Part shown: in pieces, positions 34,491 through 58,116 of the stretch | How the letters are laid out: every line of letters starts with the position of its first letter | How positions within the stretch are numbered: position 1 is the first letter of the stretch | DNA from: Mobula birostris | Taxonomy: Eukaryota | Assembly: GCF_030028105.1 (NCBI RefSeq) | Contig: NC_092372.1 | Coordinates: 158,168,058-158,232,057 of the forward strand | Direction: 5' to 3' | Length of the DNA stretch: 64,000 bases | Notes under the pieces: generated by a model | Databases searched by the model: none | Told to the model about the DNA's origin: nothing | The model's input: the letters and a program-made list of their open reading frames with translations, nothing else | Program-made: the position numbers and the translations under genes

Positions 34491-34520
34491 ACAACAAAGC
34501 AAGCACAAGGAACCACATGC

Positions 34521-34677
34521 AACACACACGAAGTGGTGGAGGAACTCAGCAGGCCAGCCAGCATCTAGGGAAATGAATAAACAGTCACCATTACCTCTCC
34601 ATAGATTGTTGCCCAAACTGCTGTGTTTCTCCAACATTTTGGATGTGTTTCTGGCATCTGCAGAGTCTCTTGTGTTT
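34521..34677. mobile_element. Mini-PLE insertion with inverted halves and a 16-bp TSD
   Basis: acaaggaaccacatgc at 34505-34520 and 34678-34693. Confidence 0.85.
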
Positions 34678-34926
34678 ACAAGGAACCACATGCCTACTTC
34701 TGATAACTTTTCTTATGTTTTTATAATGAGTGAAAACAAGTCTGGAAGATAAATAAAATTAAGGATTTTCTTCAAAAAAACATTAAGCAAATCCGTTGTG
34801 TCCTGCTAATTATTTGATTCTGTAAAAACAGAGTGATTAGCTGTTAGATGTTGCAATGGATAACAATTGAGCTTTGGTTTTCTGTAAAAACCTTCCTACA
34901 AGCTTGATTATTATTGTTTGTTACAG

Positions 34927-34983
34927 AGGGAGCTGATGGGAACAGTATCTGCATTGCAAGACCTTATTAACATAACCAGTGAG
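34927..34983 (+). CDS. PKD1L1: PKD1L1 exon (RELMGTVSALQDLINITSE)
   Basis: ttgtttgttacag| ... GAG|GTAAAG; 57 nt, phase 0-0; follows a 16.7-kb intron. Confidence 0.85.
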
Positions 34984-35872
34984 GTAAAGAAACTCTGTAA
35001 ACAAGCTGAATTTATTTTTTTTAATCAAGAGAAATGCTTGTCTCCTGATTTTTCTGAGGTGGTGCTTTGAGAGCATTGTATTACAGTAGCAATTGGCTTT
35101 CCTTATAGTGATTAATTTGTAGAATATGTTATCAGTCGATTCTTCTAATATTGTTTTCAAAAGCATTTAATGAAGACTCTTCCTTTTCCTGATGCTTGCT
35201 AGTGCTGCTCATTTAGTGATTATTGATGAGCAATGGAATCGACCATTGTCAACTGAGCCAAGTGTAGACTGCAGCTGGAGAATCCAGGTTGGAACCAGCA
35301 TCACTCCTCTTCTAATATGCCAATATCCTTTGTTTTTGTGAGCTGAAATTAGCTTATCATGCTGCAGGGTCTAAACCTATAATTTGGTTCAATCATAGAC
35401 CAGATCCAATGATAGCATTTATCATCTGAGAAAGCTGTCTTCTAATTCTGCCGTTAATGCTTACTGTGCCCTATGGTAACTATTAATGATAGATACTTTA
35501 TCGATCCTAAAGGAAATTACAGTGTCACAGTAGTATTACAAGTGCACAGACATAAATATTAGAAAAGAAGTAAAAAGAGTAAAAAATATAAAATAAGTTA
35601 CGGTACCACGAACCGTCTAACAGGAATCTAATAGGTAAATCAGAGTAAACTGCTATGCATCACATGGTTCTGCTGCACAGTTTGTCTATTAAATATTATT
35701 CCTTTCTGTCATCAATTATTTATAAAAGTAGTCAAAAGTTATTTATCACAAAATAAAAGCATTGAACCCCATGTGTAATACAGGTGAGATTATCTTAAAG
35801 TGCTGTCAAATATGATGTGGGATTTATTTGCTCTTTAGTTAAATGTGTTTTTGTTTGATTTACTCACGATAG

Positions 35873-36082
35873 GTAACTTCAGAAAGTGCTCTGACTATAA
35901 CAAAAAAAGTTAAAGAGATGATTAGACTTTTAAAAAAATCTGGGACATTCAGCCTGCGTGGAGAATTAGTGAAGAAAATAGTCTATCTGGTTGCTGATGT
36001 AATGGGAGTGTCTGACAACAGCACAGTAAATTCAAGGAACCTATTATTTAATGGTCTGGAAGTGACAACTGAGCTTTTATTG
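35873..36082 (+). CDS. PKD1L1: PKD1L1 exon, helical GAIN region (VTSESALTITKKV...EVTTELLL)
   Basis: cacgatag| ... TTG|GTAAGA; 210 nt, open, phase 0-0. Confidence 0.88.
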
Positions 36083-36191
36083 GTAAGAAATGACTAATGG
36101 CATTTTTCTGTGAGATAATCTTCTATAATTCTATATATTCTACAAATTTTATTTTTTAAGCTGGAATATTAAAAGTTGCTACAAAAGTATT

Positions 36192-37440
36192 CCTTGAGGA
36201 TGTAACTACGAAAATGGACATGGGAAAACCAGTTGATGTAGTGTACCTGAACTTTCAGAAAGCCTTTGATAAAGTCCCACATAGGAGATTAGTGGGCAAC
36301 ATTAGAGCACATGGTATTGGGGGTAGGGTACTAACATGGATAGAAAATTGGTTGGCAGACAGGAAACAAAGAGTAGGGATTAATGGGTCCTTTTCAGAAT
36401 GGCAGGCAGTGACTAGTGGGGTACCGGAAGGCTCGGTGCTGGGACCGCAGCTGTTTACAAAATACATTAATCATTTAGATGAGGGAATTAAAAGTAACAA
36501 TAGCAAATGTACAGATGACACAAAGCTGGGTGACAGTGTGAAATGTGAAGAGGATGTTATGAGAATGCAGGGTGACTTCAACAGGTTGGGTGAGTGGGCA
36601 GATGCATGGCAGATGCAGTTTAATGTGGATAAATGTGAGGTTATCCACTTTGGTGGCAAGAACAGGAAGGCAGATTACTATCTGAATGGTGTCAAGTTAG
36701 GAAAAGGGGAAGTACCACGAGATCTGAGTGTCCTTGTTCATCGGTCACTGAAAGTAAGCATACAGGTAGAGCAGGCAGTGAAGAAAGCTAATGGTATGTT
36801 GGCCTTCATAACAAGGGGAGTTGAGTATAGGAGCAAAGAGGTCCTTCTGCAGTTGTACAAGGCCCTGGTGAGACCCCAGCTGGAGTATTGTGTGCAGTTG
36901 TGGTCTCCAAATTTGAGGAAGGACATTCTTGCTTTGGAGGGGGTGCAGCGTAGGTTCACTGGGTTAATTCCAGGGATGACGGGAATGTCATATGTTGAAA
37001 GATTGGAGTGTCTGGGCTTGTATACACTGGAATTTAGAAGGATGAGAGGGGATCTGATTGAAACATATAGGGTTATTAAGGGATTGGACACGCTAGAGGC
37101 GGGAAACATGTTCCCAATGTTGGGGGAGTCCAGAACCAGAGGCCACAGTTTAAGAATAAGGGGTAGACCATTTAGAACAGAGTTGAGGAAAAATTTTTTC
37201 ACATAGAGGGTTGTGGATCTGTGGAATGCTCTGCCTAAGAAGGCAGTGGAGGCCAATTCTCTGGATTCTTTCAAGAAAGAGATAGATACATCTCTTAAAG
37301 ATAGTGGAGTCAAAGGATATGGGGAGAAGGCAGGAACAGGGTACTAATTATGGATGATCAGCCATGATCACAGTGAATGGTGGTGCTGGCTCGAAGGGCC
37401 AAATGGCCTACTCCTGCACCTATTGTCTATTGTCTATTGA
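36192..37440 (+). mobile_element. 5'-truncated CR1 LINE (RT C-terminal half and 3' UTR)
   Basis: 330-aa ORF with FQKAFDKVPH, GVPEGSVLGP and a degenerate CTDD active site; (TATTGTC)n tail. Confidence 0.95.
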
Positions 37441-37576
37441 ATATGTTTCCCTACACTCCGACTAATTATCTGATCTCACAAAATTTGTGAAATAATTCAC
37501 ATTCTATAAGGTATTTTCATGATAACACATGTTCTGTTATTTCTTATAGTGACAGGTGAATCGATGGTTTTCTAGT

Positions 37577-37611
37577 CCCACCCCACACCCCCACACCCCC
37601 ACACCCCCACA
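37577..37611. repeat. (CCCCACAC)n microsatellite
   Basis: cccaccccacacccccacacccccacacccccaca. Confidence 0.9.
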
Positions 37612-38265
37612 AAGGCCTTTATGAAATATTGTAGCTATATCTGTTGAAGGAACATAGAACATGGAATTCAACAGCACTCTAAGTGGCAATAAACAAGGAC
37701 TGAGTGTCCTCATAATCTAATCTAATCTCTGGCAATGACCACTCCCACAATAGTCACTCCACTTGAACCTAGCTTCTTTATATTGGCCCTTGACAAATGC
37801 CGATTAACCCAAGCAATCTAAATCTCCTCAGAAAGTCCTGACAGGCCCTACTCACTTTTTAAAACTAGCACTAAGTATTTATTATTGCTCAGTTCATAAA
37901 CTACTTATGAAACTATTCTATTCTGTTGTGTTTTGCTATATTATTCTTCTGTTTAATATTGGCTTGTTTGTTATATTCAATTATTTTGAATTAAATTAAA
38001 TGAATCCAGAAAATATAAATAATGGAATAAAGCCAAAATGGGCAGCAAAGGGGTATACCAAAGAACATTTTGATCAGGGCTGATCTACAGAAAATTGGAG
38101 GAGAGGATGGGTGAAGAGCAAAGAACTGCTGTGTTGGGCATTGAACTGGGATAAGAGGTGGAATCTGGATTGGGCAACAGCATTTTGGATCTGTGATCAG
38201 GGTTGAAGTCCGGAATCAGCAGACTCAGTTGAGTGGAGGGAATGAAAAGACCACTAAGGGGAAAT

Positions 38266-38802
38266 ATAGAAACATAGAAAATAGGTGCAGGAGTAGGCCA
38301 TTCTGCCCTTCGAGCCTGCACCGCCATTCAGTATGATCATGGCTGATCATCCAACTCAGAACCCTGTACCTGCCTTTTCTCCATACCCCCTGATCCCTTT
38401 AGCCACAAGGGCCATATCTAACTCCCTCTTAAATATAGCCAATGAACTGGCCTCAACTGTTTCCTGTGGCAGAGAATTCCACAGATTCACCACTCTCTGT
38501 GTGAAGAAGTTTTTCCTCGTCTCGGTCTTAAAAGGCTTCCCCTTTACCCTCAAACTGTGACCCCTCGTTCTGAACTTCCCCAACATTGGGAACAATCTTC
38601 CTACATCTAGCCTGTCCAATCCCTTTAGGATTTTATACGTTTCAATCAGATTCCCCCTCAATCTTCTAAATTCCAACGAGTATAAGCCTAGTCGATCCAG
38701 TCTTCCATCATATGAAAGTCCTGCCATCCCAGGAATCAATCTGGTGAACCTTCTTTGTACTCCCTCTATGGCAAGAATGTCTTTCCTCAGATTAGGGGAC
38801 CA
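38266..38802 (-). mobile_element. Young CR1 3' fragment
   Basis: ORF 38356-38871 CR1 C-terminus; (CTATGTTT)n tail; near-identical to 62554-63087. Confidence 0.95.
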
Positions 38803-39417
38803 ATTGTCCATCACCTGACTTAGAAATACTTCTGTTAAGGCATGTGCCTTGCAAACTGTGTTGATTTCCACATCAATGTTATTTTTGTCTCATTTTGTGC
38901 CCAGTGGCTCCATGTCTTGTACACATGGAGAGTCTAGATCAAACATCTGGAAGCATGGCACCAGTGGACAAAGTAGAGATGGAGCTACCTCTTTAAAAAT
39001 ATATTGGTTAAAAACTGTAATGCTGTGCATATTTTAGATTAACCTCTGAAACCAGCTTCCAACATCACTGACATGTTCAAACTGTTGCTCCTTAATAGCT
39101 GGATAGCTGTCAAAAGGCCAAGATCGATTGTCCTTTGCCTTTCTATTGCTCCAGGTTTAGGCTACACTTACAAACAAATAAATGGTATTCCCCATTATCC
39201 TAATATATCTTGTTGAGGTGGAGATTCCCAGCATCACTGAAACTGGGTTGTTGGCTGGGATCTTGGCGCATAAGTTTTCTAGGCAATTGAACTAATTATA
39301 AAGCAGCAGTCTTTATTTTTGCAAAGTTTCTAGCAAAGGTATATACTGTATTTTAAACTGAACAAAATAATTCAACTCTAGAATGAAAGAATGTCTCTTA
39401 AAATTCATCTCTTTCAG

Positions 39418-39660
39418 CAATATGTGCAAATCAGCAATCAATCACAGTTTTATGTGAACACCAATTTAATGGAGTTCCAAACTTATCAAAATCATGGTTT
39501 TCTGAACACAGTGCAAAGCACACATTCTGCCAAATTTTTCCTTCCTGACTTTTTGGATAAAACGATTACTGCAGGAACTGGTGAAAATAATAGTTGTATC
39601 ATCAGCCACTTGATCAGCTTCAAAAAAAATCCATACATCTGGGGAAAGTCTCCAGTGGAG
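39418..39660 (+). CDS. PKD1L1: PKD1L1 exon, GAIN (QYVQISNQ...CIISHLISFKKNPYIWGKSPVE)
   Basis: ctctttcag| ... GAG|GTTAGT; 243 nt, phase 0-0; FKKNPY motif. Confidence 0.92.
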
Positions 39661-40428
39661 GTTAGTTAGCAACAGAGGTACTTTGGTGTGTGTGTGTCTG
39701 TGTGTTGTGTACTTTTATAAAGGTTAAGTTTTGAATATTGATAATATTCATGAGAAGTTGTTTCAGACAATGCAACTATACAAAATCTTGGATGAACCAG
39801 TCATGATGAACTCTCAAATGTTCTGTGTTCCCACTGAGGAAGGATAAAGTGATCACTTTGACTTAACAGAAACTTAATTAGAAACTTAATTTGACTTCAT
39901 TAGAAAGCTGTTACGGGTGTGAGGGCTAAATTAAGATAAAAGATGTTACAAATTGCATTTTAATAACTTGGATATAGTTTCCAAGGTATTAAGAATAGTT
40001 AATGGAATGCTTTGCAATAAATAAAGTACTTTGTTATACATCACTAACATTTCATACTTTTTCAGAAGAAAATTGCTGTGATGTAATGAAAGATTGTATT
40101 TACCATTATAGCAAGTTCAGTAAGGATAGTGTGCTTGTTCTCCCTGAATATAGCCACAACTTCTTTTTTTCTATATCAGTAAAATCTTTTGCTCTATTCA
40201 CAGAATTTGTGGACTATATCTATAAAGCATTGTCCACTGGGTCAACTAAATTATATATGGAGTTGTAGCAAGAAGAAGGCATTCACTCCCCTGTTTATCA
40301 TAGAATTCAATTATAAATAGCTCTGATTCCATATAACATACTTCATTAATGAAAATGTAAATGAATGATATTAATTAAAGCTGTTTATCCATTTTGGTGA
40401 GTAGGTGTTGTTATTCTTTTTCTTGTAG

Positions 40429-40542
40429 ATTAGTGGAGATGTTGCTGACCTCACGCTGTATAATTGCACTAACAGAAGAAAAGTTGAAGTTAAAGGGCTC
40501 AGAACACCTGTTCTAATTGAGTTTGAAAGGAAGGACTCAAAT
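40429..40542 (+). CDS. PKD1L1: PKD1L1 exon, GAIN (ISGDVADLTLYNC...PVLIEFERKDSN)
   Basis: ttttcttgtag| ... AAT|GTAAGT; 114 nt, phase 0-0. Confidence 0.92.
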
Positions 40543-41639
40543 GTAAGTTTTATCACATTGAGGTCAAGTAATGTTAGAAATATAAGACTCTTAACTGGTC
40601 CCCTTGTATGATAAAGTTGAACTCTTGACCGCTCAGCTTACTTCATCCAAGGCCTTTCCCTTTATTTGTCTACCTCAACTGTGCTTTCTCGGTAACACTA
40701 TATTCTGAATTGCTATTGTTTTTGTTTCCTTTGTATTACCTGTATGTACTTATGTATGGAGTGATCTGAATGGATAGCATGCAAAACAGACTTTTTCTCT
40801 GCATCTCAATACGTGACAATAATTACAAAATTCATATTTTGAGATTCTGTGTTTTGAAATTCCAGAGCTTTCCAAGTGGTAAACCCTGGAAGAACTTGCT
40901 TCCTTCAATCTTTTTTTAATAATCACTTTTAGGATCTGAGAACTGCCAGCATGTCCATTTCCCAGATACACAATTACCCTTGAGAAGGTTGTGGTCAATT
41001 TCCCACTTGCCTGCATTAATTCCATATCCTTCGGTATATTGTTCACTCAGATTAGTATCCTGATAACTCTTAAATATTGTTAATGTTCTGCCTCCATCGC
41101 CTTCTCTGATGCATAGTCCAGTTACCAGATACCTTGAGAGCATATACTGTGGGAGCCTGTTTGACAATGTAAGCCATTATCTGTAATGACTTTCTTTTCA
41201 CTCAGTAAATTAATTAACCCTCAATAATTTCAGTGTTACTGTTTTGTCAAAGAATGCTGAGCTTCTTACTGGATCAATGCCTTGTAATTTTAGACTTTCC
41301 AATCTGTTGGCCACAGTGAAATGCTGTGAGCTCTTCAGTCAATAGACCAGAGAAATTAACTGAGGACAGTTTTTATTTCTTACCAATGTTAACACTTGTT
41401 TAGGTGTTTGCGTGTTTGAACGTACAAGTTCACAGATAGCCTGAAGCATGAATGGGGTTGAATAACCATGAATCAACCCTCATGGGGTTGGAAATCCTGT
41501 TTTTTTAATCACCTGATATCATATGGGATTGCTGATATCACAAATGAAATTGGAGCTGAATGGGATATCAACAATCACATGAAATCTTAACCCAAAAACA
41601 TTAAACCAATTCTTTATTTGTTTGACTATATTTTGAGAT

Positions 41640-41860
41640 ACAACACAGTAACAAGTCCTTTTGACCCAATGAGAGCACACTATCCAATTACACCCAATTA
41701 ACCTGTCTTTGGGATGTGGGAGGAAAATGGAGCACCTGGAGGAAGCACACATGGTCACAGGGAGAACATACAAACTCCTCGAGGGCAGTGGCAGAACTGA
41801 ATCCGGGTCCCTGGCACTGAAATAGTGTTATATTAACCACCATACCACCGCACTGCTCCA
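41640..41860 (-). mobile_element. V-SINE (HE1-like, tRNA-derived)
   Basis: The reverse complement has the V-domain gagtttgtatgttctccc...ttcctccaggtgctcc..ttcctcccacatcccaaagac; a decayed relative lies at about 49060-49215. Confidence 0.8.
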
Positions 41861-42297
41861 TTGGATATATATCATGATACATCCAAGATCAGCTAACTAG
41901 CATGGGTGCTGGATTGAACTACCTTTGCACTAAAATAGTCTTTTTTTTTGTTCTAATTGTGTTTGTTCTTGTAAATATTATGTACAAGTTGTTTTTCTTG
42001 TAAATGCCGCTTATGTAATGCCATGTACCTGTGATGCTGCTGCAGTTAAGTTTTTCGTTGCGCCTGTGCTAACATGTACTTGTAAACGTGACAATAAACT
42101 TGACTTTGATTTTGAAAGTGATATCTTCTGTTTGTTCCTTACACATAGTAAAGGAAGATTAATTGAAGCTGAGGCAATAGTGATTCAGCTTTGTTGAATA
42201 TATGTGCAATTGGCTATCAGTATGCCAGCTGGAGCATTTTTCAAAGCAATCTGCTGTTTCAGATAAAACTTCTGACTATTTTCCTGTCTTATACCAG

Positions 42298-42446
42298 GAA
42301 CAGTTCAATGTGCATGTCCTCCATCGAACCCAAATGAACATTCATATCTTGCCAGTGACACCAGCCAACCTACAGCAGGCTTTGCAGATTAGAGTGAATT
42401 TCATCAGGCCTGACCAGGAGGTGTTTCCTGTCATGCTCTTAGTGAG
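42298..42446 (+). CDS. PKD1L1: PKD1L1 exon (EQFNVHVLHR...FPVMLLVR)
   Basis: cttataccag| ... GAG|GTATGA; 149 nt, phase 0-2. Confidence 0.9.
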
Positions 42447-42761
42447 GTATGAAACAATTTACACCTTTGGATATGGGCATCCCCATACTCTTGGGAGTTG
42501 AATTGCTGCTGAAGATGTTCAGTGTTTCTAGTTGTAAGCTTCCAGAATGGTCGCCAAGGGACATTAAGAAACAGTGGTTTACTAGTAAATCAGCTTGGCT
42601 TATGGCTTGAAAAGAAGCTTGGAGGTGAAGCCATTTTCATGTGGCTGCTGTCATTTTCTCTTAATGCAGGGTAGATTATAGTGACAGCAGTTATTTTTCA
42701 CACAAGTTACTATTTTACTTTCATTTTTGAAGCTAATACTTTAATTTATATGTTTCTCTAG

Positions 42762-42862
42762 GTCGAATAAAGAGCCAACTCCAAATAAATATAACTTAAA
42801 ACAAGTCCACCACTGGAATGGAGATGTGATCCATTTGTTTATTTCTGCAACATCACTCTTGG
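42762..42862 (+). CDS. PKD1L1: PKD1L1 exon (SNKEPTPNKYNLKQVHHWNGDVIHLFISATSLL)
   Basis: tttctctag| ... TGG|GTTTGT; 101 nt, phase 2-1. Confidence 0.88.
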
Positions 42863-43729
42863 GTTTGTCACTCCTTCTTACATTTTTATACTTTAATGTT
42901 TGATGTTTTAAGAATTTAAATCAAGCTAAAAGGATGTAGGTAGTCAAGAATTTAAAATGGAATGTACGAGATCTGTATAATAACTTTCGTGTCATCTTAA
43001 CTCCTTTTCTCCTACTCAACAAAATAATAAAGTATGCTTAATTTAGACATGAATTATCTTGACAATCCAGAAGGAGAGATTTTATCTTGTTCACTGTTTG
43101 GTGTGAGATTTATAAAGTTCACTTTTGTGGTATTGCTACATAAGAGCTGCTGGATAACTTGTAAGTTACAAACATATTATCGTATATGTTTTGGCACTGA
43201 ATGCTTGCAAACATACACAATACTTGTTCTGTTTGAACTTGGCTGTGCCTTTTAATAGATGTCAAAGACATGGATGTCCTTTCCAGCACTAATTTCATAG
43301 TTGACTAGTACCCTATAACTTTCAGGGAAAGGGACTCAAATCACTAGAAGGATGCCAGCAGCACTGTTTGCATGAAATCCTCCAAATTAATCATCAGGAT
43401 AAAGAAGCCATCTGTACCCTCCACTCAGCCAACACCTCCACTGTCAGTGTTCTAATTATACTCAGCCAGCTATGCAGGCATACTACATAATTTGGAGACC
43501 TGACAGCAGACTTATGAAACAGACACGTTATTCCGTAGTGTATTTCTAAAAGGGATAAGCTTCAGGGATGTTATCAATGCCACCTCATGCTGCGATCAAC
43601 CCAAGTCAATCAATGGGGCATCTGAGAAAGTACTGAGAAACTGGAGTTCTTTTCTACAGTCCTACAGAAGCCTGGAAACCAGGGGACCTTGCACTTACCA
43701 TAGCAAACCAGTGGAGGACTTGTACAATG

Positions 43730-45142
43730 AATGTTAGGACACTGGGGAGGGTAATGGAACAGAGGAACTTAGGAGAACAAAGGCATTTTTGTTGAAAGTG
43801 GCATCACAGGTAGTGAGGACGGTGAAGAAAAGATGTTTAGCATGTTGATCTTTATCAATCAGAGCACTGACATTATGTTGCGGTTGTATAAGTCATTAGC
43901 GAGGTTCACTTGGAGTTCTGTGTACAGTTTTCTGTACCGTGCCCTGTTAGGGGAAAAATGTGGTTAAAACGGAAAAAATGCAGAAATGATTTTGAGGATG
44001 GTGCTTGGACTAGAGGGCAAGTTATAGGGAAAGGTTATCCGGGCTAGGTCTTCATTTCATGGAACATAGGGGAATGAAGAACAACCTTAGAGAAATGTTT
44101 AAAATTATGAGAGGCAGAGATATGGTGGATGATAATGGGAGAGAAGAGACCAAAATTAGGGGGAATAGAGTTAGGGTGAGAGGGTAAAAATTTAAAAGGG
44201 ATCTGAGGGCTGATATTTTCATGCGGACAGTGGTGAGTATATGAAATGAGCAGTCAGAGGCAGGTAGAATAGTATAATTAGAGATAATTAAAGAAGCACT
44301 TGGATAGGTACCTGGGGGTGGGGCAGGGGTGTTGGGGCATTGCTTGGAGGGGTACACTCTGGAAATTGAGACTTTCTGAGTGGATACCATGGACTATATG
44401 GACTCATTGGGCTAAGGGCTGTGTCCATGCTTTATTGCTCTATGAGTCTGACTCCATCAAGCACCTCCTACCTCATCTGTGGTAGAGTTTGTGGGGACCA
44501 CATTAGTTCATTAGTCACCTAGGAACACACAGAACTGGACTGGAAGGGAGTCATTCCCATCCTGAGCAAGCACTTAAAAAGAGGAACTTTATAGCTTCTA
44601 AAAGAGAACAGAAATAAATAAGAAAGAAAGAAAGGAAGGAAGGTATTTTTGCATTATTGAAAATTTTGGCAGAGAAGATTTATGAGGATGATTCCTGGAA
44701 TGCAGGGGCTAACATATGAGGAGCATTTGTCAGCTCTTGGACTGTATTCATTAGGGCATAGAAGTATGAGAGGGGATCTCATGGAAACATTTCAAATGTT
44801 GAAAGGGTTGGACAGAGCAGATGTGGAAAGGCTGCTTTCCTTAGTGGGTGAGTCCAGGACAAGAGGCCACAGTCTTAGAATTAGAGGGTTAGAATTTAAA
44901 ACAGAGATGAGGAGAAATTTTTTTAGCTGGAGGGTCATGGATTTATGGAATTCGTTGCCACTACGGCTGTGGAGGCTCGATCATTTTGGGTGTTTAAGGA
45001 GGAGTTTGATAGGTATCCGATTAGCCAGGGTATCAAGGGATATGGGGAAAAAGCTGGAAATTGGAACTAGATGGGCAAATAGTTTAGCTCATGGTGGAGT
45101 GGCAGAGTGGGCCGAATGACCTATTTCTGTTCCTTTGTCTCA
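43730..45142 (+). mobile_element. Two tandem CR1 3' fragments (older about 43730-44455; younger about 44665-45142) separated by a (GAAA/GAAG)n tract
   Basis: MIPGMQGLTYEE...SRTRGHSLRIRG...NFFSWRV. Confidence 0.8.
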
Positions 45143-45574
45143 TGAATGTTTGTTTAATAAATAATATTTAATGTTTTTATTTTGTTAGACTCTTGCCCAA
45201 AGGTTTGTAACATTTTGAAATACACAGTAACATTGAAATCAGTGGTCTAACTAAGCTGCAGGTCAGTGCAGCATACCAGTAAAGAGGTGGTTGATACAGT
45301 AAGTATACATGGGTACCAATAGCAGTGAGATATTTAAGTTACTTTAAATACACATGTATCACAAAGAGATTCTGGTTCTGCTGAGTAGAATCTCTGGTAC
45401 GTGTATCTTAGCTCACTTTGCTACATTCTATGCAAGACAGAACATTTTTTTCAGAAGTTAGCTAAAGTATAAGTATAGTGAAATTGAATAAAATAACATA
45501 GTCACAAAACTGAGAAGTAAAGGCCTCTATTATGTTAAATTTGGTAATCTGTTTTTCATTACTATTCACACCAG

Positions 45575-45770
45575 GTACTGGGACATATTATCTTGGCCTC
45601 TTAGATGCAAATTACAATAGAAAGCCCAAAAATAACTATCTTGCCAACAATGTAAGTTACACGCTAAGTGTCCGATGGATTCAGTGTTTGTACTGGGATG
45701 ATATCAAGGAGTGGAAATCTGATGGCTGTTCACCCCGGCAGGAATCAGATTCACAGAAAATAAACTGCAG
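45575..45770 (+). CDS. PKD1L1: PKD1L1 exon, N-terminal part of the GPS (GTGTYYLGLLDANYNRKP...QCLYWDDIKEWKSDGC...INC)
   Basis: caccag| ... CAG|GTATGA; 196 nt, phase 1-2; C-x2-W...W-x4-C GPS pattern. Confidence 0.95.
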
Positions 45771-46852
45771 GTATGATTATTCTCAGTGATGATGTTTCTT
45801 TGGTATGCATTTGATATTACCTTATGCAAAAAGAACTCCAATAAAATACAGCAATCTAAAATTACGGGAACTTCTGACAGTAACTGTTGGCCCTTTCCTA
45901 TAAGAGCTTGAGGTGATATGGCTTTCTTGCACATTCAAAACACATATACGCCAAACTTGTTCAGCCCCACATCAGATGCCTCAAGGAATCCAGAATGAGA
46001 CAATGTGACTTGATGGACATTCCCTGACACCTACACTGGAGTATCTGGTCGAGTGACCCATCTGTTCTACTTAACTAGCAAGCTGTCCTTTGCCATTGAT
46101 TCTAATTGAGGAGATTAGCTTGAGAGACTAAGGTACAGAGGAATAATGTGTATTGTAGTGTTTATAAACTATTTTCAGTAGTTTTAATTAGTACAATTGT
46201 TTTTAAGTACTTTGTTTAACTGCTTTAATTATATTAATCATTTATTATTTTTTGTTGTATATGATTTTAATAACTTGGATATTTTCAAAACATTCATAGG
46301 TTTGCAAACTTAATAGTTGTTTATGTCAAGAATAAGGTTAAATGGACAAGAAACTGTATTTTCAGTTATTTTGAGAATCAGGTTTGTTTTATCTCCTCGT
46401 TCCACAGTGCGATTTACAAACTGAAAGTCACTGCTTCTGCATTGAGCTTTGGCACCAGGGATGGAGGCAGATTTTCTCAGGGAGATGTCCCAGGAATTGT
46501 GTAAATAAGGCAGGAAAGGCGAGAGGCTCACCATTGGTTACAGATTCTGACCCAAAGACCTTTGCTGTTTTATTTGTAATTTGTGCTAATTAATGCTCAT
46601 TAATTTTCATTCTGAGTGGAACAAATAATTATAATGAGGAAAGCAAAATGCAACTTTACTTAGATGAGTTCGACAAAAGCTTTCACTGTTTTGTTTTACT
46701 CACAGCTTGTACTGTAAAATGCAAAATTAATCCACATCGGTCAGATTAAATGAATTAAAGTTCATGTTTGATGCTTTTGCTCTTTTCCAAATAGTTACTT
46801 CTGTCATCTTTTAGATAAATATATAATACTTAATTTTTTAATTTTTAATTAG

Positions 46853-46939
46853 TTGCAACCACATGACAACATTCACAGTTGCACATCAGTCGGTTAAGAT
46901 GAAAGATGTCAAATTCACAGATATATTGATATTTATCAG
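46853..46939 (+). CDS. PKD1L1: PKD1L1 exon, GPS cleavage site and stalk (SCNHMTTFTVAHQSVKMKDVKFTDILIFI)
   Basis: tttttaattag| ... CAG|GTGGGT; 87 nt, phase 2-2; not in the ORF track. Confidence 0.9.
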
Positions 46940-47702
46940 GTGGGTATCACAACAATTAAGGATATACTGTCTTAATACATGCCCTCTGGAACTGATTATT
47001 TGCATAATTAATTATATACACAGTGAATAGAATTTGTCTAATATCAGCACTGGATTATTACAAGCAAATGTGTCAGTAGAGAAAAGGCAAAATTAAATAA
47101 AAATTCCTTTCATTGATAAATTAGGAATATTCTGAAATTGGTATAATAGATATATTGGAGATCAAATTTTCAATTTGATATAGAGGTTTCATACTATTGG
47201 ACTGTCCACTTGAGATTATATAAACTTTACACTCGTGGCTACATTTGCAAAAACAAAATAAACTGAATACACTTTGAGGTTCCAAGTACTGAATCACTAT
47301 GCTGATTGCTGATTGTACTTTATTAGCAAAATCCATGTTATCTCCTTTGCTCTGCTGTATCTTTTCCAATTTTAGGAAGCAAGTGCTCTTCTTATTTATT
47401 TTCAGTTATTTTTACCTCTTGACTTTTACTTGGCAACTTTTCTAAACTTTAGGCTATGGTACTGATTATCCAAAATTTGAGATTACAAACAAGTATGCAT
47501 CCCAGTTTAGTTTTTATTAAAATATTCTAATACTTAATACTTGTGTAATGAATAAATATTACTTTAATAGAACCCAGTCAGCTGATGAATATTAAAAATG
47601 TTATTAATTCAGGCCAGATGGCAAAATAACCCTATTGTCTATATTTCTGATAGTCATCTATGTTTTTGGAGATTCATCATTATTTATTTCTTGCTTTGGC
47701 AG

Positions 47703-47910
47703 TGCTGTTGAAAACTACGTCACTTGTATCACTGTTCTGTTCGCACTGACCTTCTACCTTCTGCTGGTTATCTTGTGTAAGCATAAGGATCTTGTCCTTG
47801 AGACAAAACCTAAACTCATTGTATTGCAAGACAATGCTCCCGCTGACCAGTATCTTTATGCAATCATTGTGGAGACCGGCTTCAGGACAAAGGCTGGAAC
47901 CACTGCCAAG
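47703..47910 (+). CDS. PKD1L1: PKD1L1 exon, TM1 and start of PLAT (SAVENYVTCITVLF...YAIIVETGFRTKAGTTAK)
   Basis: ctttggcag| ... AAG|GTATTT; 208 nt, phase 2-0; hydrophobic helix plus TG...AGTTA PLAT motif. Confidence 0.95.
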
Positions 47911-48172
47911 GTATTTCATGTCCTTCTTAAAATCATGTTGTTTTTCTGTAATTTAGCACTGGCAGTATCAAGTTATCAAAGAGATATAAGAAAGTAGAAA
48001 GTATTGTTCTACAAAACAAATGATTAATTCCATGTGTTCTTCTGGATGGACAATAGAACACAAATGTATTTAAAGGAATAAAATGGCGTGAACTTAAGTA
48101 TATATTTTATAGGAATATCATGCGCATTAGACCAAATGACCCTGCTCAACAATATCTGTCTTATGATCCTCT

Positions 48173-48431
48173 CTTTGGGTCTGGCTGGTGGTGCAGTGAC
48201 ATCAGCGCCGGACTCCGGAACAAAGGTTCCCAAGTTCGAACCCAGTCGGGCCGCTCCTGGGCACGCTTTCCATCCGTGCCGGGTTGAGTATCGAGCTCGC
48301 AACTCGGCCTTGTAAAAAAAAACTGCGCCCTGAGAAGGACTAGGGGAACCACTCACAGAATCTTTCCTCCAAGACAACCACTTGAAAACTGGTCACTGGG
48401 GCTCTGGCAGAGTATGGCACACACAAAAAAA
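48173..48431 (+). mobile_element. tRNA-derived SINE with a 10-bp TSD
   Basis: A box TGGTGCAGTGA (48189), B box GTTCGAACCC (48234), tail ggcacacac(A)n; TSD atgatcctct at 48163-48172 and 48432-48441. Confidence 0.85.
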
Positions 48432-49559
48432 ATGATCCTCTTATAGGGCTTATTATCAGATTTTTTCACTTTTTTTTAGCCATTCATGTACAAGCACATG
48501 CATATTGCTGTCTGACTACAGCAACTAGGCATACGTCAAATCTGTTATTTCCCCATGTATTATACTGCAGCACAGAAGGAAGCTATTTGGCCCATTGTAG
48601 CAAAACCAGCTCTTAGAAGTCCCAACATTCCTCACCCCCAACATCCTCCCAACATTTCTCCCCCCCCCCACCGGACTCAAAAACTGTTTTTCCCCAAGCA
48701 GTAAGACTAATCAACACCTCCACTCACTAACTCCAGTATTACTTAATTATTTCCTGTCACAGTCACCTTCTGTGTCCAGCCTAGCTTCATTTTATGGACA
48801 TACAATCAACCTATGTATATACGCTATCTTACATATTTATGTTTATTGTGTTATTTTATTATTGTTGTGTTCTTTATCTTCTGTGCTGCATCAGATCCGG
48901 AGGAAGGACAATTCCATTCTTCTTTATATTTGTGTACGAGAAATTACATTAAACAATCTTGAATCTCCTTGTCTCAGTATGGCCTATTTCCCCTTCAATA
49001 CGCCTCTGATTCTTTTGTCACAAGTACCCTGAGGAGTACCATACAGTAACAGAAAACCTACCAGCCCATCTTTGTAAGTTTCAAGGAAATTGGAGCACCT
49101 AGCAGAAATTTACATAGTTACAGGCAGAATGTGCAAATTCCACATAGACAGCAAGTGAGACCAGAGTTAAATCTGCTGGGAGATAACAGTACTGACTGCT
49201 ATACCACAGTGATGCTTTTGAACTTCTGTAATTCTCAAACTAAACTGCTGGTAAATCTGTACAAGCAGATGGACGGTGTAATGATATACAGTAAGTGAAG
49301 TGTTGGTTTAGTGACTTTCTCCTTCTAGACATAATCCAGTAAATCGACCGAAGTTAGATGCCACAGTCCATTTTTGGAACATCAAATGCAGCAAGTGTTT
49401 AACCGGTTAACGCTACAAAATTCATATCATGCAGAACTTATAAGCATTTGTGAGCAGAATACAGCATAATTAACACCTTAATTAACTCTTCAATACAAGA
49501 GTGGAGTGCTAGTTTTGTGTGTCTTGTTAACATAAAGACAATGCACATGATATACATCC

Positions 49560-50610
49560 TCAGTTTTCTCACTTGCAGACCACAGCCAGTTCAGATTGGC
49601 AGCAATGTCTCCTCCACAATCTCCATCAGCATAGGTGCACCATAGGGCTGTGTGTTTAGCCCCCTGCTCGACTTGTTTTGCACTTATGAGTGCGTGGCTA
49701 GCAGATAGGAGGGAGATTGAAAATATGGCTAAGCGGTGCCACAACTACAATCTCTCACTCGATGTCAGCAAGACCGAGGAGCTGATTATTGACCAGGAGG
49801 AGAAAACTGGAGGTCCATGAGCCAGTCCTCATCGAGGGATCGGAGTGGAGAGTGCAGCAACTTCAAATTCCTCACTGTTATCATTTCAGAGGACCTGTCC
49901 TGGGCCTGGCACGTAGGTGCAATTACAAAGAAAACACAGCAGCGCCTCTACTCCTTAGAAGTTTGTGAAGATTTGGCATGACATCTAAAACTTTGGCAAA
50001 CTCCTATAGATAGGCAGTGGAGAGTATATTGACTGGCTACATCACAGCCTGGTATGGAAACACCAATGCCCTTGAATAGAAAATCCTACAAAAAGTAGTG
50101 GATACAGCCCAGTCCATCTCGAATAAAGCACTCTCCACCATTGAGCACATTTACAAGGAATGTTGTTACAGGAAAGTGGCAACCCTCATCAGGGACCTCC
50201 ACCACTCTTCTTGATGCTGACATCAAAAAGCTGGTACAGGAACCTGAGGATGCATACCATGAGGTTCAGGAACAGTTATTATGCCCTCAACATCAGGGTC
50301 TTGAAACAGAGGGGATAAATTCACTCAATCTCACTTGCCCCATCACTGAACTGTTCCCACAACTTTCAAGGACTCATCATCTCATGATTTCAATATTTAT
50401 TACTTGTTTATTATTAATGTTTCTTTTTCTTCTTTTGTATTTGCAGTTTGTTGTCTTTTGCACATTGGTTGTCCACCCTGATGGGTGTGACCTTTCATTG
50501 ATTCTATTATGGTTATTAGATTTATTGAGTATGCCCACAAGGAAATGAATCACGGGGTTGTATATGGTGATATATATGTACTTTTATTATAAAATTACTT
50601 TGACCTTTTA
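49560..50610 (+). mobile_element. Rex/Babar RT and 3' UTR fragment
   Basis: GAP-GCVFSP remnant, LDVSKTEELIID, ESILTGYITAWYGN. Confidence 0.85.
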
Positions 50611-50681
50611 ATTTTAGCTTTTCACAATGGTTATTCTAACAGTTACAGTCATGTTTGATAACAAATCTGAACTATTTTTAG

Positions 50682-50788
50682 GTATATATCAAACTTTATG
50701 GAGAAGATGGTGTTTCTGAAACTAGAGAGTTATACCACTCTGAGAAGCAATTATTTGAGAGGAATTCGAGATACACATTTATAATGAG
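50682..50788 (+). CDS. PKD1L1: PKD1L1 exon, PLAT (VYIKLYGEDGVSETREL...LFERNSRYTFIM)
   Basis: tatttttag| ... GAG|GTACTA; 107 nt, phase 0-2. Confidence 0.93.
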
Positions 50789-52949
50789 GTACTACATAGT
50801 AAGAGGTGAACTGGACCAAAATACTTTGTATTCAGCTCATTAGGTGATTTAAAGTAAATGAGTTTAAATCCTTTGCTTATTTGGTGCCTGTGTGTTAAGT
50901 GATGCCTTGCATTTTTATAACGTTTTCAGCACATTCACAACCCTTCCCAATCTATCGGCCAATGGGAACATCAATTAAGCATAACAACAGACCAAATAAG
51001 TACATTCTATCTCATATGATGGTGTGATGCTTTCAATCGCCTGAAGGAATACTGTCTATCATAATGGTCATGATAAAAATGAGCCTTTCTACTGATGCTA
51101 AAAGAATTCTATGTTATGGATGATAAATTTGCTAATATTTACTTATCCCTCCATAAATCCTGTTTGACCTGCTTACATCCCTGTTATTAATCCTCCCCAT
51201 GGCCTACTTTCTTTGAATTACTTTGATTGTAGATTTATTCACTTCCTTCATGATATACTTTTAAACTCTTGTGAACGGTTTGTGATATAAAAGATATAAA
51301 TCAATAAAGGCAATCACTTCCAGATAATTAATTAACCTTTAGACACCACAGTTTTTGAGATCCAAGTATCTTATGACCTTGTTTGTCTGTCCCGGGAAAT
51401 TTGGATGGAAATTACCTTGACAGTCCTTTTAGTTTCTTCTAGTTTTTGCAGAATAGCTTTCTATATAGCCCCCTTGCTCTCTTTTCATACAGTAGCTTGG
51501 AAAGGTATTATTTACCTTATCTATTTTATGCTTATCTGCTTAACTCATACAGTGCCTATAAAAAGTATTCACCCCCCTTGGAAGTTTTCATATTTTATTG
51601 TTTTACAACATTGAATCACAATGAATTTAATTTGACTTTTTTGACACTGATTAACAGAAAAAGACTCTTCCGTGTCAAAGGCAGCAATTACAGCCTCTTG
51701 TCTGTGTGGATAGGTCTCTATCAGCTTTGCACATCTGGACACTGCAATTTTTCCCATTCTTCTCTACGAAGCTGCTCAAGCTCTGTCAGATTGCATGGGG
51801 AGCATGAGTGAACAGCCCTTTTCAAGTCCAGCCACAAATTCTCAATTGGATTGAGGTCTGGACTCTGACTTGGCCACTCCAGGACATTAGCATTGTTGTT
51901 CTTAAGCCAATACTGTGTAGTTTTCGTTTTAAGCTTGGGGTCATTGTCTTGCTGGAAAACAAATCTTCTCCCAAAATGCAGTTCTCTTGCAGACTGCATC
52001 AGGTTTTCCTCCAGGATTTTCCCTGTATTTTGCTGCATTTATTTTACCCTCCACCTTCACAAACCTTCCAGGGCCTGCTGCAGTGAAGCATCCCCACAGC
52101 ATGATGCAGCCACCACCTTGCTTCACAGAAAGGATGGTGTGTTTTTGATGATGTGTGGTGCTTGGCTTACGCCAAACATAGTGTTTAGTCTGATGGTCAA
52201 AAATCTCAATTTAGGTTTCATCAGACCATAGAACCTTCTTCCAGCTGACTTCAGAGTCTCCCACATGCCTTCTGGCAAACCCTAGCTGAGATTTCATGTG
52301 AGTTTTTTTTTCAACAATGACTTTCTCTTTGCTACTCTCCCAAAAAGCTGCAACTGGTGAAGCACCGGGACAAGAGTTGCTATATGTGCAGTCTCTCCCA
52401 TCTCAGCCACTGAGGCTTGTAACTCCTCCAGAGTTGTCATAGATCTCTTGATGGCCTTCCTCACTAGTCTCCTTCTTGCACGGTCTCTCAGTTTTTGAGG
52501 ACAGACTGCTCTAGGCAGATTTACAGCTGTGCCACATCTTTTCCATTTCTTGATGATTGACTTAACTCTACTCCAAGGGATATTCAGTGACTTGGAAATT
52601 TTCTTGTATTCATTTCCTGGCTTGTGCTTTCCAATAACCTTCTCTCAGAGTTGCATGGAGTGTTCTTTTATTTTCATAGTGTAGTTTTTTGCTAGGATAC
52701 TGACCCACCAGCAGTTGGACCTTCCAGATACAGTTGTATTTTTACTACAGTCAGTTGAAACACCTTGACTACACAGGACTCCAAAACAAGATCTCCATTT
52801 AACCAATTATGTGACTTCTAAAACCAATTGGCTACACCAGTGATGATTTGGTGTGTCATATTAAAGGGGAGGGAGGAATGAATACTTATGCAATCAATTA
52901 TTTTGTGTTTTACATTTGTGATTAATTTCAATCACTTTGTAGAGAACTA

Positions 52950-55750
52950 CAAAGCTGCTATTGTGCCTCCCGTCTCCCCTTCCCCCACTACCACTCTGCA
53001 ACCCCGTCTCCCTCAGATCCCACGGTCAGCTCCTGGGCCCTCAGAGGCTCCATCTTCCTCTTACCCCAACCCTCCCCTCTCCACTGACACCACCAGCCTC
53101 CCCCCTCCCCCCTCTGATCCCACTTTTCATCCACGCCGGGTCTTTACCATCCCCTCTGACCTTCAACTGCCTGAGGCAGAACGCTCTGTCCTCAGTAAGG
53201 GCCTCACCTTTGTTCCCCTTCGCTCACACCTCAGCGAGTTCCGCGCTCGCCATGATGCGGAACTCTTCTTCCGCCGTCTCCGTCTCCAAGCCTACTTCTT
53301 CGGTAAGGACTCTTCCACCCCCACCGATGACCCCTTCTCCTGTCTTCAACCCTCCTCCTCTTCATGGACACCCCGCTCTGGTCTTCTGCCTGCTCTGGAT
53401 CTCTTTATCGCTAACTGCCGACGGGACCTCAACCGTCTCGACTTCACCGCACCTTGTCCCCATTCCAACCTTACTCCTTCCGAATGCTCTGCTCTCCACT
53501 CATTCCACACTAATCCTAACCTTACTATTAAACCTGCCGATAAGTGGGTGCTGTAGTAGTCTGGCATACTGACCTCTACCTTGCCGAGGCACAGCGACAA
53601 CTCGCGGATACCTCCTCTTATTTACCCCTCAATCGTGACCCCACTAAGGAGCACCAGGCCATTGTCTCCCACAACATCACCGACTTTATCCGCTCAGTGG
53701 ATCTCCCATCCACTGCTGTCAACCTTATAGTTCCCACACCCCGCACTTCCCGTTTCTACCTCCTACCCAAAATCCACAAACCTGCCTGTCCTGGCAGACC
53801 TTTTATCTCAGCTTGCTCCTGCCCCACCGAACTCGTTTCTGCATACCTCGACACAGTTTTATCCCCCTTTGTTCAATCCCTTCCTACCTATGTTCGTGAC
53901 ACTTCTCATGCTCTTAAACTTGTCGATGATTTTAAGTTCCCTGGCCCCCACCGCTTTATTTTCACCATGGATGTCCAGTCCCTGTATACTTCCATGCCCC
54001 ATCAGGAAGGTCTCAAAGCTCTCTGCTTCTTTTTGGATTCCAGACCCAATCAGTTCCCCTCTACCACCACTCTGCTCCGTCTAGCAGAATTAGTCCTTAC
54101 TCTTAATAATTTCTCCTCTGGCTCCTCCTACTTCCTCCAAACTAAAGGTGTAGCTATGGGCACCCGTATGGGTCCTAGCTCTGCCTGTCTTTTTGTTGGC
54201 TTGTGGAACGATCTATGTTCCAAACCTATTATGGTATCTGTCCCTCACTTTTCCTTCGCTACATCCACGACTGCATTGGCACTGCTTCCTGCACGCATGC
54301 AGAACTCGTTGACTTCATTAACTTTGCCTCCAACTTTCACCTTGCCCTCAAGTTTACCTGGACCATTTCCGACACCTCCCTCCCCTTTCTAGATCTTTCT
54401 GTCTCTATCTCTGTAGACAGCTTATCTACTGATGTCTACTATAAGCCTACTGACTCTCACAGCTATCTGGACTATTCCTCTTCTCACCCTGTCTCTTGCA
54501 AAAATGCCCTTCTCGCAATTCCTCCGTCTCTGCTGCATCTGCTCTCAGGATGAGGCTTTTCATTCCGGGACGAGGGAGATGTCCTCCTTTTTTAAAGAAC
54601 GGGGCTTCCCTTCCTCCACCATCAACTCTGCTCTCAAACACACCTCCCCCATTTCACGTACATCTGCTCTCACTCCATCCTCCCGTCACCCCACTAGGAA
54701 TAGGGTTCCCCTGGTCCTCACCTATCACCCCACCAGCCTCCAGGTCCAACATATTATTCTCCGTAACTGCCGCCACCTCCAACGGGATCCCACCACTATG
54801 CACATCTTTCCCTCCCCCCGTCTCTCTGCTTTCCACAGGGATCGCTCCCTATGCAACTCTCTTGTCCATTCATCCCCTCCATCCCTCCCCACTGATCTCC
54901 CTCCTGGTACTTATCCGTGTAAGCGGAACAAGTGCTACACATGCCCTTACACTTCCTCCCTTACCACCACTCAGGGCCCCAGACAGTCCTTCCAGGTGAG
55001 GCGACACTTCACCTGTGAGTTGGCTGGGGTGATATACTGCGTCCGGTGCTCCGGATGTGGCCTTTTATATATTGGCGAGACCCAACGCAGACTGGGAGAT
55101 CGTTTTGCTGAACACCTACGCTCTGTCCGCCAGAGAAAGCAGTATCTCCCAGTGGCCACACATTTTAATTCCCGTCCCATTCCCATTCTGATATGTCTAT
55201 CCACGGCCTCCTCTACTGTAAAGATGAAGCCACACTCAAGTTGGAGGAACAACACTTATATTCCGTCTGGGTAGCCTCCAACCTGATGGTATGAACATTG
55301 ACTTCTCTAACTTCCGCTAATGCCCCACCTCCCCCTCGTACCCCATCCGTTATTTATTTATATAAACACATTCTTTCTCTCTCTCTCCTTTTTCTCCCTC
55401 TGTCCCTCTGACTATACCCCTTGCCCATCCTCTGGGTTCCCCCCCCCCTTTTCCTTCTCCCTGGGCCTCCTGTCTCATGATTCTTTCATATCCCTTTTCC
55501 TATCACCTGTCCAGCTCTTGGCTCCATCCCTCCCCCTCCTGTCTTCTCCTATCATCTTGGATCTCCCCCTCCCCCTCCCACTTTCAAATCTCTTACTAGC
55601 TCTTCCTTCAGTTAGTCCTGACGAAAGGCCTCAGCTCGAAATGTCGACTGTACCTCTTCCTAGAGATGCTGCCTGGCCTGCTGCATTCACCAGCAACTTT
55701 GATGAGTGTTGCTTGAATTTCCAGCATCTGCAGAATTCCTCATGTTTACA
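52950..55750 (+). mobile_element. Penelope-like (Neptune-type) retroelement with RT and GIY-YIG endonuclease, frameshifted; 12-bp TSD
   Basis: LSKGLTFVP, IKPADK, FYLLPKIHK, MDVQSLYT, GVAMGTRMGP, RYIHD (decayed YIDD), Cys linker CKRNKCYTC, VIY...LYIGET; TSD tgtagagaacta at 52938-52949 and 55751-55762. Confidence 0.95.
55613..55650 (+). ncRNA. Minimal type I hammerhead ribozyme motif in the PLE pLTR (partly decayed)
   Basis: TAGTC-CTGACGA-AAGGCCTCAGCTC-GAAA-TGTC/GACTG: helix I, CUGANGA core, GAAA and a GUC cleavage triplet. Confidence 0.75.
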
Positions 55751-56882
55751 TGTAGAGAACTATTTTCACTTTGAGACAAAAGAACCTTTTACTGTTGATC
55801 AGTGTCAAACTAAATTCATTGTGATTCAATGTTGTAAAACAATAAAGCATGAAAACTTCCGGGGGGGGGGGAGGTGAATACTTTTTAGAGTCACTGAATA
55901 GTTTGTGACAGATGTCATTATAGCTTAAGAAATAGTAGATGGAGTTGACCAGATCAAAGCCAATCTGAACTTGGCATTTTCTGCCTCACACTCATTAAAC
56001 AGTATTACATAGAGTCTGTCACGGCCTTGAATAAATTCAATGATTTGCCCTCCGCAGCTCTGTGGGTAGAGAATCCTATAAATTCATAATCTATAATCTA
56101 AAGATTCATAACTTCATTTCTGTCTTACATTTGCAACACCCTGTTATTACACTTTGTTCCTTTCCCTGAGTTTTCTCCCCATGATTGGAAACATCCTTTC
56201 AGCATCAGTATCGTCAGAGTGTCTCAGAAACATGCACCTTTCATTGAGGTCTTCCTGGTACAGGGTTTCTCAACTGTTTTCAAGCCATGGACTGATCTAG
56301 CAGATTGTCTTCAGCATCAGCAATACCATTCACTGTTCTTCATTTCTCAATATGTTTTCCTTGGGGCTACCTGGCCTACCTGTGGAAGACTAGGCATATG
56401 GACATAATTTGGTGCCTTGACAGTTCCTGCTCCAAAACAGAAGTATAATTGCATTTCATGATTGTTTACTGATTCTCACATGCAGCATTGTTAATATTTA
56501 TGCTATAACTAATATGTTCCTTAAAAATTTGATTTGTTTCACCATATTTTTAACACTCCTTTCCTTATAAATTCCTGCATGATGGAAGTGGTCTACTGAT
56601 TGCACTTTCTCCTCTGGAGACAGCACAGAGGTCAAGGGTACCTCGCTTTGTTTTATCCTGGCCCCTTACTGTAAATCACTTTGCTTCACAAATTACCAGA
56701 GGTTTTGGGATTAAACTGTTAAGTGTAAATTAAGATAAAATTGTTGCATTTACTTAAGAAAGATATATTTTTTTTTAAATAGCAACCAACTTTTGTCCTA
56801 CATTCTCTAAGCCTTGTTTAAATGAAAATTGTGCCTGACTAGAGTTTTACGTTCCATGAAAGTAGTTAAAAATCTTTCTTAG

Positions 56883-57099
56883 TGTTCCAGATAACCTTGG
56901 TCCAATTTGGAAGGTTCATCTTTGGCACAATAACGGTGGTTATTCTCCTAGCTGGTATGTTACCTCTGTGATTGTTAAGGACGTGCTAATTGGTACGTGC
57001 TGGTTCTTTCCTGCTGAATGCTGGCTTGCGGCAGATGAAGGAGATGGAAAAGTAGAACGAGAACTGGTCTCACTCATCCATGCACCTGGCTTTAAGAAA
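56883..57099 (+). CDS. PKD1L1: PKD1L1 exon, PLAT (VPDNLGPIWKVHLWHNNGGYSPSW...CWLAADEGDGKVEREL...GFKK)
   Basis: ctttcttag| ... AAA|GTAATA; 217 nt, phase 2-0. Confidence 0.95.
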
Positions 57100-57438
57100 G
57101 TAATATATTATTTTTCTAAGATAACTATCAATGTTAACATGTATTGACCTTGCAAATTAAGAATGAAACTTTTGGCTGAATGCATGTTTTGTGACATGAG
57201 TGAATTTAATTAAGACGTAGGAACCTTTGGATTTTAACAAATTGTGACATTTCTGATGGTGTGGCAACTCCGAAATTTGAGTGCTGACTGATCCTAATCA
57301 TAATGCAGTAAAGTCTTAAGCTAGGGTATGCGCTTAATATTCTGGCAACAAATTTCATACACAGCTGAAACTGCTACGATTTTGCTATAAACCATCTTTC
57401 AGCTGATGGTTCAAGGACCAGTGGCGATTAATTTAAAG

Positions 57439-57503
57439 CAGGGGTTCCCAACCTTTTTTATGCCATGGACCAATTTTACTCGGCAAGGGGTTGGTAACCC
57501 CTG
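57439..57503. mobile_element. 65-bp hAT MITE
   Basis: TIRs CAGGGGTTCCCAACC / GGTTGGTAACCCCTG; perfect 8-bp TSD atttaaag; inside an old CR1 fragment (about 57405-57760). Confidence 0.92.
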
Positions 57504-58116
57504 ATTTAAAGTGAGAACAAGCAGATACAGAGGAGATGTGAGGAAAAACTTTTTTTATATTAAGAGTGATGGTGATCTAGAGCTAATGGGTTGAAGGAAA
57601 TTGAGCCATTCAGAGTTTTAAAAGGGGAATCAAAAAAGCACTAGAGAAATAATTAACTTTGTGGCTGTGGGTAACAGCAGGAGGAATGGACTGCATAGAT
57701 TCTTCTCATGGGAGTTGTCATGGATGTATCTGGCCAAGTGTGTTCCTTTGTGCTGTGACAACTTCTTAATTCAACCCACAGTCGCTCTTCTATATGTCAA
57801 AATCATTGACAATCTAATGACAAGTTTCATATTTTGTAACTGTTTAAAATGATGCATTTTTGTTCTCTGCACTAATTTTGTATTTCATAAGCTTTGTACA
57901 GTCAATGAGTTTTCGAGATAATTATACTATGAAAGGTCATAGCTTTAAAAATGTTGAGACATTTAAAAGAGAAAAGGTCATGCATAAATATTGTATTCTG
58001 TGCTTTGTATGTGCAAAATGCCACATGCTGCAAAACCTGATTTATGTTCTCTGTGAAACAGATTTTATTAAAACATTTAATGGTTTCAATTAATGAGATA
58101 TTCTTGTTTTTTACAG

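Follow-up and report, generated by a model that had tools for sequence, protein, structure and literature searches.

Mice and people require PKD1L1 for the left-right asymmetry of the body. Its paralogs PKD1, PKD1L2 and PKD1L3, as well as sea-urchin REJ3, carry a GPS just ahead of the first transmembrane segment (TM1) and are reported to be cleaved there. In the accessible part of one paper, cleavage is assumed for all members of the family and the REJ region is described as necessary for the cleavage of PKD1 (PMC1934368). According to the accessible text of a review, PKD1L1 is devoid of the HL/T,S tripeptide and, like one other paralog of polycystin-1, is not cleaved (PMC9672506). Zebrafish and medaka Pkd1l1 are reported to contain a Pfam GPS that mammals lack, the accessible text of that report containing no discussion of the catalytic triad (PMC5318412), and the one supplement of it that was searched yielded nothing on the zebrafish motif. 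The accessible parts of PMC11727252 and PMC11718168 likewise hold nothing on the PKD1L1 triad, and a map of the triad across vertebrates was not found in the open literature in so far as it was accessible, subscription papers on Pkd1l1 apart.

For GAIN domains, HL/T or HM/T is given as the typical cleavage sequence (PMC10592476). The triad is reported to be insufficient for cleavage by itself, and two accessory marks of a cleavable GAIN domain are described, namely an aromatic residue at the position of latrophilin F803 (two residues after the first GPS cysteine, C1+2), where F803Y keeps full activity, and a glycine before the second cysteine, C2; BAI2 bears H-L-S but is hardly cleaved, and flap regions matter as well (PMC13062082). 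In the CELSR and BAI proteins, cleavage is reported to have been lost paralog by paralog, whereas in PKD1L1 the loss described below lies among orthologs of one gene.

The window analysed here is a stretch of 64 kb from Mobula birostris. The middle part of PKD1L1, from the REJ region to beyond TM3, occupies 3271..63917 on the forward strand, as indicated by 22 collinear tblastn pieces matching residues 666-1744 of Pristis PKD1L1; the start and the end of the gene, together with the PKD repeats and the channel part, are located outside the window. The order REJ region, GAIN, TM1, PLAT and TM3 is seen within it, and the collinear REJ-GAIN-TM1-PLAT-TM exons are shared with the PKD1L1 of mouse, ape, ricefish and Xenopus. 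The upstream GAIN-domain exons (18004..42849, forward strand) were placed by tblastn against Pristis PKD1L1 and by the predicted GAIN fold of a chimaera ortholog, with limits, inexact at the splice sites, of about 18004-18195, 34924-34986, 35873-36082, 39391-39666, 40429-40536, 42298-42447 and 42760-42849. Further PLAT exons lie at 50682..57126 on the same strand (about 50682-50786 and 56878-57126 by tblastn; Pfam PLAT E-value 1e-7). Over 93 aa, the spliced GPS segment shares 90% of its residues with Pristis PKD1L1; its identity to elasmobranch PKD1L1 orthologs in general is 80-90%, versus about 31% to Pkd1b. All three protein matches of the GPS exon are PKD1L1 or PKD1L1-like, and in the tree the Mobula gene is nested among elasmobranch PKD1L1 orthologs, with that of the sawfish Pristis as the closest named protein. 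It is an ordinary PKD1L1 ortholog, in agreement with the earlier note on this DNA.

The first part of the GPS is encoded by an exon at 45575..45770 (forward strand), which scores 22.9 bits against a cut-off of 22.5 with Pfam GPS PF01825 and contains, by codon starts, C1 (45685), Tyr at C1+2 (45691), Trp (45694), Trp (45712), Gly (45724), C2 (45727) and C3 (45766). A GT..AG intron of 1082 nt (45771..46852, forward strand) parts the GPS between C3 and C4. It is followed by an 87-nt exon (46853..46939, forward strand) that provides C4 (46854), His (46860), Met (46863), Thr (46866), Phe (46872) and most of the stalk, and then by an exon at 47703..47910 (forward strand) with the end of the stalk, TM1 and the start of PLAT. 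The donor AG|GT at 45770 and the acceptor TAG|T at 46853 give an in-frame join without stops, in which a serine codon is split. Out of 1000 AG sites tried as acceptors beyond 45770, the one at 46853 alone yields the pattern C-x-C-x-H-[LMIF]-[TS]-x-F. Contigs from all three runs examined (of six listed), which come from two studies, connect 45770 with 46853 and 46939 with 47703; none of the runs is recorded as RNA, yet the contigs omit both flanking GT..AG introns exactly. Two contigs have C instead of T at 46853, with which the residue is still Ser. The splice coordinates proposed in the earlier note are therefore right, and the four cysteines, both tryptophans, His at 46860-62, Thr at 46866-68 and the T-T-F sequence that it had listed are all present in the spliced translation. 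Its description of the motif as hidden across an intron goes too far: the intron does split the GPS, but the public models of sharks, rays and a chimaera already display the motif and the Pfam GPS.

Skipping of the 87-nt exon would preserve the frame. No form lacking 46853-46939 was found among the listed contigs, in which rare forms are dropped. The exon, which carries both the site and the stalk, may serve as a splice switch for cleavage. A splice variant of PKD1L3 is reportedly uncleaved at its GPS. Several public gene models bear on the same exon: in those of Megalops (P0010), Diceros (P0192) and two bichir-like sequences (P0230 and P0235), C3 is joined straight to the next exon, which could reflect either annotation error or real uncleavable isoforms. 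The models P0003, P0011, P0194 and P0219 misread the exon beyond C3, so that the GPS motif is hidden, and the Latimeria UniRef model lacks the GPS exon that the near-identical P0241 contains.

Compared with mouse, ape, Oryzias javanicus and Xenopus PKD1L1, the Mobula protein retains His, Thr, the four Cys, the aromatic residue and Gly. All GPS elements are found in it, namely four Cys, two Trp, the two accessory marks (Tyr 45691 and Gly 45724, matched by sequence register) and His-Met-Thr (46860..46868, forward strand); the cysteines presumably pair as C1-C3 and C2-C4, as in latrophilin-1. The chimaera ortholog P0002, which is 75% identical to the Mobula segment, was modelled with AlphaFold2 from 32 sequences at a mean pLDDT of 79. 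Foldseek matches the model to the BAI3 GAIN domain (E 3e-8), and superposition with the GAIN domains of BAI3, GPR126, BAI2 and latrophilin-1 gives Z scores of 17.9-19.4 and an rmsd of 3.2-4.4 over 238-267 aligned residues. The alignment to cleaved latrophilin-1 stops at Leu437 of the model, which corresponds to Leu837, the residue preceding the cut. Mobula PKD1L1 is thus predicted to carry a GAIN domain, made up of a helical subdomain A and a beta subdomain B that closes with the GPS ahead of TM1, with its scissile bond in the L837/T838 register of latrophilin-1, the cut falling between 46865 and 46866. The predicted fold and register are alike in the GAIN domains of latrophilin-1, GPR126 and CELSR2 and in those of the cleavage-poor BAI2, BAI3 and CELSR1/3. 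A PDB sequence search with the GPS exon gave no useful match, and the whole Pristis protein retrieved polycystins and one weak match to GPR126. Taken together, the ortholog of PKD1L1 in Mobula has a real, spliced and probably cleavable GPS, and from its residues and the modelled fold we expect with good confidence that the protein cleaves itself.

The site might instead be a structural relic, whose residues are kept for the folding of the last GAIN strands while the cut is absent or slight, as in BAI2. Such a relic would agree with the reported insufficiency of H-x-S/T (PMC13062082) and with a folding role of the threonine, since latrophilin-1 unfolds upon Thr-to-Ala substitution (PMC3321182). 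It is less easily reconciled with the presence of both accessory residues and four Cys at the Mobula site. In addition, the histidine is reported to be variable among BAI2 orthologs (PMC13062082), but in PKD1L1 it is invariant in all named rows other than those of frogs, percomorphs and placental mammals.

The distribution of the triad was followed through 134 listed rows, from which 17 were dropped (2 unnamed, 12 duplicates or congeners, 3 short or misread models). Megalops and Latimeria were then removed, since the exon is absent from their models. The resulting named set of 115 species does not include zebrafish, Oryzias latipes, human or lungfish. H-x-T/S is present in 33 of the 115. It is kept in all eight chondrichthyans, bichir, both chondrosteans (sturgeon and paddlefish), gar, two of three osteoglossomorphs (the arowanas) and axolotl, and among mammals in both monotremes, all ten marsupials and six of seven afrotherians. 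It is missing from bowfin, eel, one mormyrid, the named otocephalans (3/3), percomorphs (11/11) and frogs (16/16), and from manatee, both xenarthrans and all 46 boreoeutherians. The site reads H-L-A in mouse, R-L-A in chimpanzee and gorilla, Q-L-K in Oryzias javanicus and H-L-G in Xenopus. The sequence given in the earlier note for human PKD1L1, in which the site is lacking, agrees with that of the two apes and with the review that calls PKD1L1 uncleaved, in its accessible text (PMC9672506). A single mammalian loss, which the earlier note had inferred, is ruled out: H-x-T stands in 18 of 67 mammals, platypus and echidna even having all four Cys, and frogs and most teleosts lost the site too. 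No PKD1L1 of a bird, reptile or even-toed ungulate was among the matches listed. Loss of the gene is reported for these groups.

Beyond the named set, cluster representatives were placed, and identified, by tree only. The triad is also found in a coelacanth-like model, an elopomorph-like fragment, two otocephalans and P0231, which is sister to the PKD1L1 of all jawed vertebrates, as well as in 10 of 12 deeper relatives. Because the coelacanth-like protein, P0231 and most deeper relatives have it, the intact triad is likely to be the ancestral state, as had been proposed, and the uncleaved state to be derived and to have arisen repeatedly. On hand-set species trees the 115 species call for at least 6-7 changes, or for 7-8 losses without regain; with the tree-placed sequences the clupeocephalan loss splits into four, which gives 10-11 losses without regain by hand count. 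Parsimony on a 40-row subset needs a minimum of 9, of which one falls outside vertebrates. Six losses, those of frogs, boreoeutherians, euteleosts, cypriniforms, xenarthrans and manatees, are each backed by at least two sequences. For Amia, eel, mormyrid and Denticeps, a single gene model underlies each loss. Regain of the triad in arowanas, or a hidden paralogy from the teleost duplication, was considered as well. The arowanas and the mormyrid fall together in the tree (SH-aLRT 99), and the triad is intact in the two otocephalans and in the elopomorph-like fragment P0258, which fills 19% of the columns and has a support of 92, so neither needs to be invoked, although a regain may have happened.

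The accessory residues follow the triad only in part. Both are found in 22 of the 33 species with a triad; among the 50 non-therian species they occur together in 15 of 17 with a triad versus 1 of 33 without, the species being related so that few events underlie these counts. In monotremes the residue at C1+2 is Leu, all seven afrotherians are without the Gly before C2, and C2 and C4 are absent together in all 65 therian rows, where C4 is replaced by Tyr and C1 and C3 stay. Given these three changes, the mammals that retain the triad may cut poorly, and the functional loss may be older than the loss of the triad. Therian PKD1L1 resembles fish Pkd1b in this respect, for the Pkd1b rows also lack C2 and C4; the cysteine pair is accordingly not universal in the family. 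The two tree-placed otocephalan proteins have the triad without the aromatic residue. In teleosts, C1+2 is Ser, the same residue as in BAI2, in tarpon, eel, mormyrid and most clupeocephalans and Phe in arowanas and P0258, a pattern that would fit repeated change or regain.

A coupling between the triad residues was looked for along the tree. After loss of Thr, His is lost at an approximately 3-fold faster rate (p 0.04-0.14), with control sites equally extreme in 10/80 to 17/63 cases; for the aromatic residue p is 0.04-0.27, and Gly goes in the opposite direction. A per-site excess (p 0.005 for His) was discarded as circular, the groups being defined by His, and was replaced by this non-circular test. 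A coupled loss of His and Thr is therefore suggested, if weakly. The weakness of this signal, as well as the many losses of the triad in a gene that is retained, fits a structural relic, but the loss lineages tolerate four other residues at +1 (Ala, Gly, Arg and Val), which speaks against it; on balance we regard the relic as unlikely.

What the cut would be for is a separate matter. Mouse Pkd1l1 is reported to be required for laterality and to mediate flow-induced calcium signals (PMC4894641), and its site, H-L-A, has no Thr. Since mouse needs the gene without having the triad, the sensing of left-right flow can probably do without cleavage, and the map of the triad argues likewise that flow sensing itself requires no cleavage. 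Tagged mouse Pkd1l1 is described as a full-length protein and an N-terminal form of ~60 kDa (preprint 10.1101/2023.01.12.523739, accessible part), the latter of which would be too small for a GPS product. In cartilaginous fishes the left-right role of PKD1L1 is taken as an assumption.

The earlier note had further proposed that ancestral PKD1L1 may have been activated by its stalk. Flow would then pull the ectodomain off the cut protein and the stalk would act as a tethered agonist on PKD1L1-PKD2 or on G proteins wherever the site is kept. The mechanism by which PKD1L1-PKD2 is activated is called open in the accessible part of PMC12799467, and stalk-dependent signalling through the TOP domain is reported for polycystin-1 (PMC9672506, accessible text). 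Among the 33 intact species, 32 have Phe at +3, compared with 42 of the 82 others; for Thr at +4 the counts are 31 of 33 and 31 of 82. However, Phe+3 is not lost significantly faster after Thr loss (p 0.12-0.18), and packing of the strand explains its retention. The Mobula stalk reads T-T-F-T-V-A-H from the Thr onwards, extends for about 28 residues before TM1 (the best hydrophobic 19-mer begins 31 residues from Thr) and differs in sequence from those of PKD1, PKD1L2, PKD1L3 and REJ3, which are other paralogs. Unlike adhesion GPCRs, PKD1L1 has no T/S-x-F-x-x-L-M pattern, L at +6 with M at +7 being found in 0 of the 115 species, and an 11-TM polycystin offers no 7TM pocket. Mouse, in which the left-right function is known, senses flow without the site (PMC4894641). 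Stalk agonism in PKD1L1 is thus unsupported, and we consider this explanation very unlikely.

Alternatively, the cut might serve a second role apart from laterality, for example through a released ectodomain acting as a ligand in adult tissue, and its losses would track the loss of that role. Long retention of the triad would fit, as would the good coverage of the spliced contigs in two studies, although their tissue is unspecified and depth is a poor measure of expression; the N-terminal fragment of polycystin-1 has also been proposed as a soluble activator (PMC9672506, accessible text). Against it, no trait common to the loss lineages was found, and we hold it to be highly improbable.

We favour, with some reserve, a spliced PKD1L1 that would cut itself during maturation, a probably ancestral trait which, being in all likelihood dispensable for left-right flow sensing, would have been lost repeatedly. 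By analogy with GAIN chemistry, Thr would be deprotonated by His, which Tyr at C1+2 and the Gly-Cys backbone hold in place, and an N-O acyl shift followed by hydrolysis would break the Met-Thr bond. The last strand would keep the ectodomain attached to the membrane part as two associated chains, the cut occurring in maturation as in polycystin-1. Its role may lie in maturation or in regulated release of the ectodomain; it would have been kept in slower-changing lineages and eroded in boreoeutherians, xenarthrans, manatees, frogs, euteleosts, cypriniforms and some single fishes. A bolder version, quite unlikely in our estimate, would make ancestral vertebrate PKD1L1 a self-cleaving flow sensor with a removable ectodomain, a mode kept in sharks, sturgeon, gar, coelacanth, axolotl, monotremes and marsupials and dropped about ten times, including in the lineages of mouse, ape, frog and ricefish; if true, the statement that PKD1L1 is uncleaved would be a product of which animals get studied. 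The gene and its motif are ordinary features of the family, and the value of the comparison is a corrected history, in which the site is ancestral, kept in some mammals and lost repeatedly. It also offers natural pairs in which self-cleavage of polycystin GAIN domains and the permissive residues can be probed, namely gar and bowfin, arowana and mormyrid, axolotl and frog, and elephant and manatee.

Two further observations concern the gene at large. P0231, P0250, P0253 and P0257 are 3900-4400 aa long with 6-8 PKD-domain stretches, and one has a WSC domain; their length and their PKD-domain stretches suggest that the ectodomain was shortened in later PKD1L1. In Mobula, the intron at 18196-34923 spans about 16.7 kb by tblastn limits. 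Remnants of transposons lie in introns at 16243-17136 (reverse strand), 36160-37203 (forward strand) and 51724-52644 (reverse strand); they comprise two reverse-transcriptase frames together with a broken-up Tc1-like transposase.
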